From Candidatus Hydrogenedentota bacterium (GTDB taxonomy: Bacteria; Hydrogenedentota; Hydrogenedentia; Hydrogenedentales; SLHB01): a DNA stretch of 64,000 nucleotides. The notes below the pieces were generated by a model. That model was not told the origin of the DNA. It made no database searches and saw nothing but the letters and a program-made list of their open reading frames with translations. This document shows, one piece after another, positions 27,192-29,025 of the stretch. Position numbers and translations under genes: made by a program. The stretch is from contig CAVUWV010000020.1 of the NCBI GenBank assembly GCA_963745075.1, positions 64,001 through 128,000 of the forward strand. The letters run 5' to 3'. The first letter of the stretch is position 1. Each line of letters opens with the position of its first letter.

Positions 27192-27220
27192 TTGACAAGT
27201 ACCAGGATTTGGGCCATCGT
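27192..27220 (+). promoter_or_regulatory. Sigma70-type promoter for the tandem riboswitch leader
   Basis: TTGACA (27192-27197), a 17 nt spacer and CATCGT (27215-27220). The aptamer begins about 10 nt later. Confidence 0.6.
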
Positions 27221-27229
27221 TCCAATAAA

Positions 27230-27283
27230 GCGCCGATTTGACCGACCCGCTTGCGGGCGCAATAGAAACGCGGCTAAAGCGAG
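27230..27283 (+). promoter_or_regulatory. SAM-II riboswitch aptamer (copy 1)
   Basis: GCGCC-GATTTG-ACCGACCC-GCTTGC-GGGCGC-AATAGAAACGCG-GCTAAAG matches the SAM-II H-type pseudoknot pattern (P1, GAUUU loop, UUGC pairing with GC-U-AA). Confidence 0.85.
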
Positions 27284-27300
27284 ACCAAAGAGATTGAGTC

Positions 27301-27342
27301 ACCCGCTTTGGCCGGCTCAGGCCTGAAGCGGGTTCTTATTTG
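27301..27342 (+). terminator. Intrinsic terminator of SAM-II copy 1
   Basis: ACCCGCTTTGGCC...GGCCTGAAGCGGGT followed by TCTTATTT. The 5' arm can instead pair with the aptamer 3' tail (27271-27281). Confidence 0.75.
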
Positions 27343-27361
27343 CATTTTTGAATCATCGGAA

Positions 27362-27463
27362 TTCATCACGAGAGGCGCGAGGGTACTGGCTCTGTGAACG
27401 CCCGGCAACCGAACCAAGTTGGTCGCGGGGCCACGGCCAGCCCGGGAAACCGGGAATGATGAT
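27362..27463 (+). promoter_or_regulatory. SAM-I (S-box) riboswitch aptamer, with G at the U57-equivalent position
   Basis: P1 UCAUC/GAUGA, J1/2 ACGAG, kink-turn P2 with GAGGGUACUGG, P3 GGCAACC...GGGGCC, pseudoknot CUGGC/GCCAG, and P4 CCCGG-GAAA-CCGGG. Confidence 0.88.
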
Positions 27464-27491
27464 GTATGCTCTTCTTCAAAGACTTCATCAC

Positions 27492-27518
27492 CCCCTCCAT
27501 CGCGAGGGGCTTTTTCTT
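27492..27518 (+). terminator. Intrinsic terminator of the SAM-I riboswitch
   Basis: CCCCTC-CATCGC-GAGGGG followed by CTTTTTCTT. The upstream TCATCACCCCC can pair with the P1 3' strand GGGAATGATGA as an antiterminator. Confidence 0.8.
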
Positions 27519-27610
27519 GCCTGCTCGCGGCGGTCCCAACCCTGGTCTTGGCTCCTGATGAACATTTGCAAGTCGGTATCATTGACGCAGAAGGTCGGAG
27601 GGAGGTTTGA

Positions 27611-28387
27611 ATGATCGGATCAATCGCGGGGGACACTATTGGATCCATTTACGAATCCCGCTCGTGGAAAAGCAAGGATTTCCCGTTGCTCGGCGACCTT
27701 TGCGCCTTTACGGACGACACGGTGCTGACCGTTGCCGTGGCTAAGGCCATTCTGGATGGTGCGCCGTGTCGGGAAGTCGTAAGGGATTTGGGCAGGAAAT
27801 ACCCTTACTGCGGCTACAGCAATGCGTTCAAGGAATGGCTATTCTTTGGGGATCGCGGGCCGTATCAGAGCTGCGGGAACGGTTCAGCGATGCGGGTGAG
27901 TCCCGTGGGATTTGCCTTCAACACGGAACAAGATGTCCTTGATGAGGCAACGAAAACCGCTGAGTTCACGCACGACCACCCCGAAGGAATCAAAGGGGCG
28001 CAGGCGACGGCGCTGATAATTCTTCGAGCACGAAATCGCGTATCCAAGGACGATATTCGTGCGGAGATCACTGACCGATTCACCTATGACTTGAGCAAGA
28101 CGGTCGACGAAGTCCGGCCGGATTACCGTTTCAACGGAACGTGTCAGGGCACTGTGCCGCAGGCCATCGTCGCATTCCTGGACTCGGAGTCCTATGAGGA
28201 TGCGGTCCGGAACGCGGTGTCGCTCGGAGGCGATGCGGACACGCTTGCCTGCATCACGGGCGGAATCGCCCAAGCGTTCTACGGCGGGGTACCCGACGAA
28301 ATCGTCCAGTGGACGAAGCAGCGTCTCAGTCCAGAGCTTCTGGAGATCACGGAAGCATTCTGCAAAAAGTTTGAAATCGCGATATAG
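27611..28387 (+). CDS. ADP-ribosylglycohydrolase (DraG/ARH family)
   Basis: GSIAGD.IGS.YE, FTDDT, GNGSAMR, THDHPEG and GGDADT motifs. GGAGG RBS. Confidence 0.93.
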   Translation: MIGSIAGDTIGSIYESRSWKSKDFPLLGDLCAFTDDTVLTVAVAKAILDGAPCREVVRDLGRKYPYCGYSNAFKEWLFFGDRGPYQSCGNGSAMRVSPVGFAFNTEQDVLDEATKTAEFTHDHPEGIKGAQATALIILRARNRVSKDDIRAEITDRFTYDLSKTVDEVRPDYRFNGTCQGTVPQAIVAFLDSESYEDAVRNAVSLGGDADTLACITGGIAQAFYGGVPDEIVQWTKQRLSPELLEITEAFCKKFEIAI

Positions 28388-28491
28388 CCGACGACAAAGA
28401 CGAGTGCCCAGATTGATCGCTTCACCTGTCACGCCGAGGATCCCCAATACAAAACAGTGTGGGGAATCGTCGACATTATCTTCGCGTTCCG

Positions 28492-28767
28492 TCAACTTGG
28501 CCCCGACGTAATCCGGGAGTACACGCCGTCGACCGCGTAGCCGACGCCATTTTGTTGACAATGCGCTCGAAGGAGTTCGCCAAGCGCAATAACGCGTTCA
28601 CTTTCGTTCGTGGCGATCTCGACGACTACCATCGGCTCGCTTTCTCCCCTGAAATGACCGTTCTCCGAGTACGTCGTGAAGTTCTCGAAATGAGAGGAAA
28701 CGATTTGGACGACTTCACATTCGGGCGCTGCGACATAGAGGCGATGGAGTCTTCCGATCAACTGCAC
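28492..28767 (-). CDS. 91 aa ferredoxin/PII-like protein resembling phage SAM lyase/DUF3574
   Basis: Perfect RBS AAAGGAGGT 9 nt before GTG 28767. Beta-alpha-beta-beta-alpha-beta pattern with F..FT....G.FRG..E...VVEI...Q..V. Confidence 0.6.
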   Translation of the reverse strand: MQLIGRLHRLYVAAPECEVVQIVSSHFENFTTYSENGHFRGESEPMVVVEIATNESERVIALGELLRAHCQQNGVGYAVDGVYSRITSGPS

Positions 28768-28878
28768 TTGAATATTACCTCCTTTGCGGGAACCAAGGTC
28801 TGTTTGCGCATTCCAGGGCATAGCCTGACTCGCGTTAGCGTTGTATTCGAATCAACATCATGCGGATAACAAAACTAA

Positions 28879-28907
28879 TTGACAAGTGTAGGGAACCATG
28901 CTAAGTG
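28879..28907 (+). promoter_or_regulatory. Putative sigma70 promoter for SAM-II copy 2
   Basis: TTGACA (28879-28884), a 17 nt spacer and TG-C-TAAGTG, in a similar position relative to the aptamer as in copy 1. Confidence 0.5.
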
Positions 28908-28913
28908 TGTCCA

Positions 28914-28966
28914 GCGCCGATTTGATCTTCAGCTTGCGGGCGCGTTAGAAATACTGGCTAAAGCGA
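28914..28966 (+). promoter_or_regulatory. SAM-II riboswitch aptamer (copy 2)
   Basis: GCGCC-GATTTG-ATCTTCA-GCTTGC-GGGCGC-GTTAGAAATACTG-GCTAAAGCG. The core is identical to copy 1 and the loops differ. Confidence 0.85.
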
Positions 28967-28983
28967 CGAACTTGGTTCGTAAT

Positions 28984-29025
28984 AGACCCGCTTCAGTCAG
29001 GAATAGGCTGAAGCGGGTTTTTCTG
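28984..29025 (+). terminator. Intrinsic terminator of SAM-II copy 2
   Basis: 13-bp stem ACCCGCTTCAGTC/GGCTGAAGCGGGT, loop AGGAATA, then a T run. Confidence 0.85.

Follow-up and report, generated by a model that had tools for sequence, protein, structure and literature searches.

The textbook function of SAM riboswitches is to regulate sulfur and SAM metabolism by feedback, and the question raised by the locus described here is what such switches do around a gene for an ADP-ribosylglycohydrolase (ARH). The window analysed is a stretch of 64,000 nucleotides from a Candidatus Hydrogenedentota bacterium (contig CAVUWV010000020.1 of GCA_963745075.1), taken from one metagenome-type assembly of 6.8 Mb that is 89.7% complete, and in this assembly the SAM-I and SAM-II elements of the locus are the sole SAM-I and SAM-II matches. 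An earlier note, made from the sequence alone, had described three SAM riboswitches with their terminators around the ARH gene and a convergent gene for a 91-aa protein, and with this layout Rfam, the terminator scan and the gene calls agree (Table 1). Its remark that no Met, Cys or SAM gene is nearby holds for the two genes that flank the inserted segment, or islet, on which these elements lie, this being the scope of the check: one is DUF455-like and the other codes for an unknown 531-aa protein.

The explanation that we prefer, and to which we would give about an even chance, is that the islet carries a mobile pair, formed by the ARH and by a PII-like protein of the SAM-lyase branch, which is wired by riboswitches to the SAM level and would be turned on at low SAM, probably in the course of phage-host conflict.

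Table 1. Features of the islet, with their positions in the window
Feature	Position	Strand	Basis and remarks
Genome-specific insertion, ~2.9 kb net	27017..30143	.	BLASTN against congeners; between two divergent core genes
TTGACA -35-like hexamer	27193..27198; second unit 28881-28886	+	Alignment of the two SAM-II units
SAM-II aptamer, copy 1	27220..27300	+	RF00521, 36.9 bits vs gathering score 36
Terminator of SAM-II copy 1	27301..27345	+	Scan core 27320-27334; full stem 27301-27333 by reading
SAM-I aptamer, G for U57	27360..27465	+	RF00162, 54 bits vs cut-off 44.4
Terminator hairpin and T-run behind SAM-I	27492..27518 (hairpin 27492-27509)	+	Scan; present in every fold model
ADP-ribosylglycohydrolase (ARH), 258 aa	27611..28387	+	PF03747; GGAGG 7 nt before ATG
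Predicted PII-superfamily, SAM-lyase-like protein, 91 aa	28492..28767	-	GTG at 28767 behind AAGGAGG; convergent with ARH
Second SAM-II aptamer, divergently placed relative to the small gene (copy 2)	28904..28981	+	RF00521, 29.7 bits, below gathering score
Terminator of SAM-II copy 2, 15-bp stem and T-run	28984..29030 (scan 28984-29020)	+	Terminator scan
IS right end, truncated, 322 bp	29210..29531	+	The genome has four more copies of this IS

The Riboswitch Leader

When the elements were compared with Rfam by cmscan, as had been recommended in the earlier note, SAM-I and one SAM-II exceeded their cut-offs, the latter by 0.9 bit only, whereas the second SAM-II (E = 3.9e-4 for the 2.6 kb searched) stayed below; the narrow margin of the one and the shortfall of the other count against the preferred explanation. 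The second is nevertheless a paralogue of the first, as the two units align at 78% over ~180 nt and have in common the TTGACAAGT box, the aptamer core and the terminator stem. The promoter claimed for each unit comes down to the -35-like hexamer that they have in common, since the promoter scan called none on the + strand. The fully conserved pocket of SAM-II comprises, in the available excerpt of PMC3764141, U10-U12 of L1 and, in P2b, U20 U21 G22 C23 and G42 C43 U44 A45 A46 A47; the core blocks GAUUU, GCUUGC and GCUAAA are intact in both copies, their mapping to the published numbering being made by reading, and the Rfam SAM-II model scores P1 only, with the H-type pseudoknot outside the score.

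Terminator-like hairpins with T-runs were found at 7 sites, vs 2.8 ± 1.5 in shuffled sequences, and one of them stands behind each of the three aptamers. In the fold models of both SAM-II copies the 5′ arm of the terminator can pair with the 3′ tail of the aptamer, which provides an antiterminator. Copy 2 has no visible target gene, and may be a duplicated switch whose target would have been lost at the IS-scarred right end of the islet.

The SAM-I match spans the full four-helix model (positions 1-108 of 108), and reads GGGGCC where the consensus has GGUG, with an A-U pair of P3 flagged as non-canonical. U57 is kept in all 20 of the other SAM-I sequences of the phylum among the matches listed, the islet having the one G of the 21. 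The A45-U57 pair forms a triplet with the adenine of SAM (PMC4666379 and PMC3764141, in the portions available); this pair is broken in the islet aptamer, which weighs against our explanation, as does the lack of any competing antiterminator helix for SAM-I in the MFE and constrained folds. Judged from its sequence, the SAM sensing of this aptamer may be weakened. One could also suppose that the G57 aptamer senses a SAM-related compound in place of SAM, given that the change falls on a ligand contact and that SAM-I variants with odd gene neighbours offer a precedent (PMC10853860, as far as its available text goes). The spermidine-sensing variants of that text resemble the islet aptamer in joining a change of the ligand pocket to a non-canonical gene association, whereas the islet change occurs in one genome only, with no polyamine gene, and the closest relatives, including the one that precedes the ARH orthologue of a genome of the sister family (G046), keep the U. 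Because it is seen in a single genome, the change looks more like drift, and an altered ligand seems to us barely credible.

Tandem SAM riboswitches, including pairs of different classes such as SAM-II before SAM-I/IV and SAM-II/SAM-V, have been collected by Sherlock et al. (2022; PMC9481103), whose available text counts seven arrangements of SAM-II before SAM-I/IV, 164 double SAM-I and 44 double SAM-II. Like these, the islet leader consists of two complete SAM switches in series, each with its own expression platform; unlike those of that text, its second aptamer is a SAM-I of canonical architecture (RF00162), it precedes an ARH gene instead of a gene of sulfur or SAM metabolism, and it lies on an inserted islet.

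The Two Proteins

The ARH belongs to PF03747 (E 3.7e-34; 119.1 bits vs a curated cut-off of 26.2) and matches phrog_6572 (E 2.6e-46), with PDB relatives that include 2cwc and ARH3. It has TDDT at residues 33-36 and a GGDADT that coincides in the alignment with that of 2cwc; these are presumably the acidic motifs of the metal site, which ARH enzymes have towards the N and the C terminus. Its expression may depend on an internal promoter instead of the leader, which would speak against our explanation. A role of the ARH in SAM/MTA salvage was considered and set aside, salvage genes being linked in 0 of 16 loci, and PADLOC 2.0 returned zero families for the ARH and for the 91-aa protein (E ≤ 0.001), a further point against the preferred explanation.

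The 91-aa protein is predicted by modelling to be a SAM-lyase-like trimer of the PII superfamily. Its reading frame matches cluster P0001, with 4 close homologues at 54-79% identity, and the + strand ORF at 28459-28869 was rejected as a gene, because it has no family match and the homologues are on the minus frame. With the monomer model (pLDDT 86.9), VIA-align places the phage SAM lyase Svi3-3 (6zm9) first (Z 11.9 and rmsd 2.7 over 91 of 91 residues), followed by a chain at Z 9.0 and by PII proteins at about 8, and Foldseek also ranks Svi3-3 first (E 6.6e-5). Weak matches to PF23780 are given by 19 of the 78 family members at E ≤ 0.01 (best 1.4e-5); at that E value P0001 itself matches no Pfam family, and it stays below the curated cut-off of PF23780 (28 bits), which tells against our explanation. 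Across the 78 relatives G37 and an aromatic residue at position 39 are present in every one (78/78 each), E44 in 61 and Q72 in 76; Q72 aligns with Q104 of Svi3-3, and G37, position 39 and E44 were placed by secondary structure. The first rank of Svi3-3 in both structural searches, the weak PF23780 matches and these conserved residues together bear out the SAM-lyase likeness claimed before. A further point against the preferred explanation is N73, at a position where the usual residue is E or D.

In the available part of PMC7877911, the conserved set of the SAM lyases is Gly56, Tyr58, Glu69 and Gln104, to which would correspond, in the small protein, the G-x-aromatic before a short T-loop, the Glu after it and the Gln in the B-loop. 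With 6zm9 as the best structural match and a trimer predicted, the small protein is like Svi3-3, the T3 SAMase and the SAM-AMP lyase, all of the PII superfamily; unlike the SAM lyases of ~125-150 aa, it has 91 aa and a T-loop of only 2-4 residues, and unlike Svi3-3 it has Phe for Tyr58 and Asn for Glu105, with PF23780 below threshold. It differs from the phage SAM lyases in being host- or islet-encoded, and in that its domain is fused elsewhere to ARH, to DUF3293 and to methyltransferases.

The trimer model scores 0.91, vs 0.00 for the best of 3 controls; of 30 proteins whose solved structures are pairs of one chain 20 attain the mark, and of 23 that were solved as single chains 1 does so. Between runs the contacts agree by at least 92%, the partner pLDDT is at least 89, and the interface includes residues 31-48. 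This pass may come from likeness, because solved trimers of PII proteins and of SAM lyases exist. Profile searches with a 5-row alignment of the small protein gave chance-level macro-domain matches only among PDB sequences and nothing in viral contigs; the sole metagenome-contig locus that they returned (L036) is false, being an antisense frame of an oxidoreductase. A search by word index for longer relatives of the protein yielded none.

An Inserted Islet

The alignment with three congeners (G003, G004 and G005) ends at 26988/27016 and restarts at 30144, and in these genomes the same two border points are only 238-257 bp apart. The GC content of the islet is 50-57%, vs 59-63% in the flanks, and when the ARH and the small gene were sought in five congeners, the islet was absent from all of them. 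The four other copies of the IS are 99-100% identical and have a common longer left flank that is missing from the islet copy. From the insertion, the lower GC and the IS scar, the islet is best read as horizontally acquired, within the explanation to which we gave an even chance. No ADP-ribosyltransferase was found within the islet, which counts against that explanation. A tRNA-like stretch at ~29085-29190 on the minus strand receives no call from ARAGORN or Rfam.

The islet might also be taken for a decaying relic, that is, a scrap of foreign DNA scrambled by the IS, on which the riboswitches were orphaned and where their adjacency to the ARH has no adaptive meaning; the truncated IS end, the targetless second SAM-II, the U57G of SAM-I and the absence of the islet from the five congeners would all suit such decay. 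However, neither ORF is interrupted and each has a good ribosome-binding site, the cores of the two SAM-II copies are whole, the linkage of SAM-I and ARH is found again in G046 with 61% protein identity, and the order ARH, small gene, SAM-II is found in other metagenomes at ~87% identity, so that we hold decay to be improbable.

Recurrence of the Linkages

The islet is missing from the congeners, and its linkages appear elsewhere. G046 has a SAM-I of the same subtype, which scores 67.7 bits and is equipped with a terminator; the ARH orthologue, encoded on the same strand, lies 1.3 kb downstream of this SAM-I, and the interval contains no terminator-like site. In groundwater contigs (X4 record 27; X3 records 19 and 21) the ARH, the 3′ half of the small gene and the second SAM-II keep their order at ~87% identity; the 357-374 nt upstream of ARH in these contigs have no match of at least 80% to the tandem leader, which again counts against the preferred explanation. 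Finally, two proteins obtained from the representative search (P0152 and P0155) are fusions, in which PF03747 is joined to the domain of the small protein at the C-terminal side (hhalign 98.0%, E 1.7e-13). These fusions were not foreseen in the earlier note, and neither were the 2.9-kb insertion with its IS scar, the targetless SAM-II or the U57G change.

At the level of the ARH subfamily, a SAM riboswitch stands upstream in only 2 of the 16 loci examined, which weighs against the preferred explanation, two of the 14 without one having little upstream sequence; no riboswitch was found near the ARH loci L006-L008, L070, L072, L073 and L020-L022 or near six phage loci. The suspicion that relatives would have met, metK or ahcY behind these switches, and that the switches had been orphaned from them, fails for the tandem, because the SAM-I relatives nearest to the islet copy precede an ARH orthologue or unknown genes and not met genes; no met gene lies behind the tandem.

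The ARH and the small gene converge at a distance of 105 bp, and between the ARH stop (28387) and the small-gene stop (28492) neither the scan nor the folds find a U-tailed terminator, just as the earlier note had stated. In Clostridium acetobutylicum the ubiG-mccBA operon of sulfur metabolism is under S-box-driven antisense control, and in the islet, likewise, read-through from the SAM-I leader would run antisense to a convergent gene; it differs in having a lyase-like gene as its possible target and a protein-coding ARH on the sense transcript. This geometry, the lyase-like fold and motifs of the small protein, and a homologue in another genome (G117) which also converges with its upstream gene would be compatible with an overflow valve, in which read-through at low SAM would silence an active SAM lyase, and termination at high SAM would leave the lyase free to trim SAM, with the ARH as a passenger. 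Such a valve appears unlikely to us: in G046 the ARH recurs with the SAM-I subtype and no lyase-like gene is near it, and in the fusions P0152 and P0155 antisense control is impossible.

The fusions point beyond an antisense valve, to a partnership between the two proteins like that of DraG with PII. In the DraG-GlnZ system a hydrolase of the ARH family is controlled by the binding of a PII protein, and the PDB entries of that comparison (3o5t and 5ovo) are among the fold matches of the small protein. The islet would be like it in pairing an ARH-family enzyme with a small predicted PII-fold trimer, on the basis of adjacency, conserved adjacency and natural fusion; it is unlike it in that the partner is of the SAM-lyase branch, with a presumed ligand that is SAM-like and not ATP, ADP or 2-oxoglutarate, and in having no DraT-like transferase.

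A Probable Context of Phage-Host Conflict

In two genomes (G065 and G066) the ARH orthologues adjoin a type IV restriction enzyme, and the small-gene homologue of G117 closes a type I R-M cluster, with neither ARH nor riboswitch nearby, a finding that counts against our explanation. The small domain also heads a type IIG-like methyltransferase in an operon led by SAM-I, and at 7 loci elsewhere in the phylum a SAM-I stands ahead of a restriction-type operon; sister genomes have SAM-I-led operons of MoxR, type IIG methyltransferase and HKD-SNF2, in which the methyltransferase carries the same SAM-lyase-like domain. The arrangement of the three switches around the ARH and the small protein suggests that the SAM level serves in the islet as a signal in genetic conflict, and not just in metabolic control. 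Tentatively, the SAM riboswitches of the lineage could be considered infection sensors, in such a way that a collapse of SAM, of the kind brought about by phage SAM lyases, would lift termination and switch on the conflict genes; these would be, in the islet, the ARH and a SAM-binding PII-like partner, and in sister genomes the MoxR, methyltransferase and HKD-SNF2 operons. Of the two models put forward in the earlier note, that of an infection or stress sensor fits this wider pattern better than the overflow valve.

A different relation to phages would be that the ARH and the lyase-like protein form a phage-derived anti-defence pair, destroying host immune signals or marks (ADP-ribose-based, and SAM- or SAM-AMP-based), with the riboswitches timing expression as SAM falls during infection. 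Phages have ARH homologues of 40-47% identity, and the ARH matches phrog_6572; most of what the small protein matches in BFVD comes from phages, including two proteins named SAM hydrolase; and CRISPR signalling involves SAM-AMP lyases that belong to the same superfamily (accessible part of PMC12255297). Yet the islet has no further phage gene, no match to P0001 came from a tblastn search of 50,697 phage records, and the six phage ARH loci are without riboswitch, for which we find this origin quite improbable. A search for the ARH in viral contigs likewise gave no match.

A Possible Mechanism

If we return to the preferred explanation, of a mobile ARH and PII-like pair wired to the SAM level, the series of events could have been the following: (i) while SAM is bound, the pseudoknot would hold the 3′ tail of SAM-II and the terminator would form; (ii) as SAM falls, this tail (GGCUAAAGCG) would pair with the 5′ arm of the terminator and transcription would continue; (iii) the read-through would then pass a second checkpoint, SAM-I, whose sensing is perhaps weakened, and enter the ARH; (iv) after the ARH, with no terminator, the transcript would run into the small gene in antisense; (v) and finally, at the interfaces between its subunits the small protein would bind, and perhaps cleave, SAM or an adenosyl ligand resembling SAM, and it would act with the ARH in the way that the PII protein GlnZ acts with DraG. 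The net effect would be to couple the removal of ADP-ribose marks to the collapse of SAM, and the most likely setting would be phage-host conflict, for example the destruction of SAM by phage SAM lyases.

Meaning of the Association

In the full-text literature, no paper was found that joins "SAM riboswitch" with ADP-ribosylglycohydrolase or with BREX, and none that joins riboswitch, restriction-modification, S-adenosylmethionine and anti-phage defense; the accessible text of the literature combining riboswitch, SAM lyase and phage does not treat such a link. In the islet and at the 7 further loci of the phylum, SAM riboswitches stand ahead of conflict-type genes, whether ARH, restriction-type methyltransferase operons or the SAM-lyase-like domain. 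If this link is functional, it would constitute a sensor of metabolite depletion, made of RNA, in the service of immunity, and the ARH enzymes would have acquired a new class of partner, a PII protein of the SAM-lyase branch.

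Aptamers and expression platforms

The earlier note had proposed a SAM-sensing module in which three SAM riboswitches bracket an ADP-ribosylglycohydrolase (ARH) gene and a gene for a SAM-lyase-like protein, and cmscan indeed recovered SAM-II, SAM-I and SAM-II, the second SAM-II below its gathering score. No other credible match to SAM-I or SAM-II was found in the 6.8-Mb assembly (89.7% complete). The promoters and terminators that had been claimed fared unequally: a terminator-like hairpin with a T-run lies 3′ of each of the three aptamers (terminator scan, 7 sites vs 2.8 ± 1.5 in shuffles), but the promoter scan called none on the + strand.

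Features of the islet and of related loci
Feature	Position	Strand	Description
tRNA-Arg (ACG)	25339-25415	-	1.6 kb left of the insertion
SAM-II copy 1	27220-27300	+	Rfam covariance model 36.9 bits (gathering score 36)
SAM-I	27360-27465	+	Rfam covariance model 54 bits (gathering score 44.4)
ARH	27611-28387		PF03747 E 3.7e-34; phrog_6572 E 2.6e-46
Small gene (P0001)	GTG at 28767	-	Convergent with ARH; the 91-aa reading is the protein-collection form
SAM-II copy 2	28904-28981	+	29.7 bits, below gathering; E 3.9e-4 for 2.6 kb searched
tRNA-like stretch	~29085-29190	-	GTTCGATTCC box; not called by ARAGORN or Rfam
IS fragment	29210-29531		Final 322 bp of an IS
Small frame	29726-29845	+	Ends in a CxxC...CxxC zinc-ribbon-like motif; within the insertion, downstream of the IS fragment
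SAM-I/MoxR loci	L063 (G055:C166:6500-20000), L065 (G060:C191), L053, L056, L028, L060, L062		Other genomes of the phylum
Tandem SAM-I, G040	L027/L029 (G040:C214:1348-1791)	-	66.3 and 65.2 bits
Small-gene homologue, G117	L040 (G117:C44:9000-17572), 7602-7871	-	89 aa; convergent with hsdR

The two SAM-II units are paralogues (78% alignment over ~180 nt) which have in common the TTGACAAGT box, the aptamer core and the terminator stem, and both retain the GAUUU, GCUUGC and GCUAAA blocks that, by our own mapping on the sequence, would be the fully conserved SAM-II pocket nucleotides of the excerpted text of PMC3764141. When the leaders were folded without the terminator 3′ arm, mimicking the state during transcription, the aptamer 3′ tail (GGCUAAAGCG) was predicted to pair with the terminator 5′ arm in both copies, and in copy 1 this antiterminator is present in the unconstrained minimum-energy structure as well; such an exchange could work, in these models, by the standard OFF-switch logic.

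The SAM-I aptamer is less convincing as a switch than the SAM-II copies. It carries GGGGCC in place of the consensus GGUGCC, the matching P3 pair being flagged as non-canonical by cmscan, and the fold models contained no competing helix, the terminator forming in every one of them. The altered position is taken to be U57, from the G56-U57-G58-C59 list in the excerpt of PMC3764141; in the DSSR analysis, as excerpted from PMC4666379, A45 and U57 form a triplet with SAM. The U is kept in 20 of the 20 other SAM-I matches listed for the phylum, the five most similar sequences included. Because U57 is replaced and no helix competing with the terminator was found, the SAM-I checkpoint may be weakened in this genome. 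The aptamer could also be a variant for an altered ligand. Tandem SAM switches of different classes are themselves published, as seven SAM-II before SAM-I/IV (PMC9481103, in excerpt).

Origin of the islet

The block is foreign. In three congeners (G003, G004 and G005) the two genes that flank it here have homologues lying side by side in divergent orientation; BLASTN homology to the congeners ends at 26988/27016 and restarts at 30144, break points that stand 238-257 bp apart in those genomes vs 3.1 kb in the window, and GC is 50-57% within the block vs 59-63% outside. Searches of the five congeners, and of the first set of 19 further genomes of the family, recovered no copy of ARH or of the small gene.

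Four copies matching the IS fragment at 99-100% identity lie elsewhere in the genome, and all of them extend leftwards into one shared sequence, which is missing here; therefore the right part of the islet is truncated. Nothing recognisable lies downstream of SAM-II copy 2, and the islet could be a decaying relic; the ARH gene, for its part, is preceded by a GGAGG box, and its TDDT and GGDADT motifs are intact. The IS, of which the genome has at least four copies (L032-L035), bears a short repeat (ACTGAACGATGT...) close to each of its ends, and the tRNA-like stretch may be the remnant of an attachment site. As had been claimed, no U-tailed terminator was detected between the stop codons of ARH and the small gene, and an antisense valve, with read-through from ARH silencing its convergent neighbour, is possible.

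The small protein

The 91-aa protein has four close homologues (54-79% identity). Its AlphaFold model (pLDDT 86.9) has a beta-alpha-beta-beta-alpha-beta-beta layout, for which Foldseek places the phage SAM lyase Svi3-3 (6zm9, E 6.6e-5; 6znb, E 9.0e-5) first, above PII-like proteins, and VIA-align superimposes 91/91 residues on 6zm9 (Z 11.9, rmsd 2.7), followed by a chain at Z 9.0 and PII proteins at ~8. The BFVD matches are phage proteins almost throughout, two of them named SAM hydrolase.

A profile search gave 287 representatives at E ≤ 0.001, and 78 of the best 150 were aligned, after removal of the longer fusions and of a few short sequences. PF23780 (S-AdoMet_lyase) matches 19 of the 78 at E ≤ 0.01 (best 1.4e-5) while not matching P0001 itself, and 7 match DUF3574, the neighbour family of DUF3293. 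Six of 21 longer relatives are fused to DUF3293 (P0046, P0054, P0070, P0083, P0084, P0128). Against PDB sequences the 78-row profile again has Svi3-3 at the top (E 0.012), with Q72 of the family aligned to Q104. In active SAM lyases, according to the excerpt of PMC7877911, only Gly56, Glu69 and Gln104 are strictly conserved, and Tyr58 packs on the substrate; across the relatives G37 is invariant, position 39 always aromatic, E44 kept in 61/78 and Q72 in 76/78, and G37, F39 and E44, judged by their position around a much shorter T-loop, may correspond to Gly56, Tyr58 and Glu69.

A trimer is predicted: the score is 0.91, whereas the best of 3 controls scored 0.00; runs share no fewer than 92% of their contacts, and partner pLDDT is at least 89. 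Of 30 proteins with solved structures that are pairs of one chain, 20 reach the mark for this score, as does 1 of 23 with single-chain structures; the pass may reflect likeness only, because solved trimers of the same fold exist.

Association of the parts

That ARH, the small protein or domain and SAM riboswitches belong together is indicated by three independent lines. Firstly, in G046, from a different family, a SAM-I of the window's subtype (67.7 bits), with a promoter-like site and a terminator, is followed by two or three small ORFs and then, 1.3 kb downstream on the same strand, by an orthologue of ARH that is 61% identical along 254 residues; this interval has two weak promoter-like sites and no terminator-like one. 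Secondly, groundwater contigs (X4 record 27, X3 records 19 and 21; two metagenome runs, possibly of one campaign) match 27597-28683 at ~87% identity, and then, after 220 diverged letters, 28908-28981. Their 357-374 nt upstream of ARH have no window match at 80% or more, and the tandem leader is therefore diverged or absent there. Thirdly, P0152 (417 aa) and P0155 (421 aa) are natural fusions in which PF03747 precedes the small-protein domain (hhalign 98.0%, E 1.7e-13); their ARH part is only distantly related to that of the window (27% identity).

X4 record 28, a 2337-bp contig, matches the SAM-II copy 2 unit along 70 nt without a difference; its joint, which reaches 116 nt back, suggests that the unit is repeated in tandem there, ahead of DNA absent from the window.

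Two observations speak against a general rule: of 16 ARH-subfamily loci examined, of which 7 belong to the phylum, 3 to other phyla and 6 to phages, only 2 have a riboswitch upstream (2 of the other 14 have little upstream sequence), and the small-gene homologue of G117 has neither ARH nor riboswitch at its locus.

SAM-I and conflict systems

Among 135 genomes of the phylum SAM-I occurs at 26 places in 22 genomes, classed by reading the first sizeable downstream ORF. Seven of nine high-scoring examples precede a ThrC-like PLP enzyme (one Pfam-checked), the other two stretches ending too soon; seven, of 44-63 bits and from six genomes, precede a MoxR-like AAA ATPase (three Pfam-checked); and the remaining ten precede ARH (2), unknown proteins, DUF6847 or an SNF2 helicase. 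The tandem SAM-I pair of G040, of the subtype closest to the window's, precedes a 369-aa protein without Pfam or PADLOC match.

The two MoxR operons examined in full encode the ATPase, three or four unknown proteins, an Eco57I/type IIG-like methyltransferase of 1210-1357 aa (PADLOC E 4e-52) and an HKD+SNF2 protein (PADLOC E 7.9e-47), and the MoxR-class aptamers retain the pocket nucleotides as far as readable. Such an arrangement resembles a restriction or defence system gated by SAM. In G055 the N-terminal ~120 residues of the methyltransferase (L063:7152-7700) share homology with the small-protein family (hhalign 94.9%, E 4.6e-8), and the G063 operon has a weaker match.

The genomic context of ARH and of the small-domain relatives likewise points to conflict systems, PADLOC itself giving no match for the window's ARH or small protein. 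In G065 and G066 the ARH orthologue lies 3′ of a type IV methyl-directed restriction enzyme (PADLOC E 2.3e-52), and the G117 homologue is the last gene of a type I R-M cluster (hsdS, PLD protein, AlbA_2/HATPase protein, hsdR). Phage homologues of ARH (40-47% identity) stand beside an integrase and a regulator, or after a DNA methyltransferase, and ARH and the small protein could be a phage anti-defence pair. At L007 (G038:C458) two genes come after the ARH orthologue, one a further member of the ARH family and the other encoding a WGCGAFGG motif, which is typical of bacterial PARG-like macrodomains; together these genes make an ADP-ribose-processing cluster.

Interpretation

The classes of aptamer, the fold of SAM lyases and the ARH family had all been described before. 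Literature searches returned no published association of SAM riboswitches with ARH, a SAM-lyase-like PII protein or restriction-type operons; any of the three might be listed in the gene-association tables of riboswitch surveys.

The islet core is most economically read as a mobile pair, ARH and a PII-like protein, that SAM switches off: when SAM is low the ARH enzyme would be produced, and at the protein level its PII-like partner would add control linked to SAM or would cleave SAM. The pair would be analogous to DraG and the PII protein GlnZ; 3o5t and 5ovo, structures of the DraG-GlnZ complex, are both among the fold matches of the small protein. Because SAM-I recurs before restriction-type operons, SAM depletion as an alarm is an attractive, if unproven, idea.
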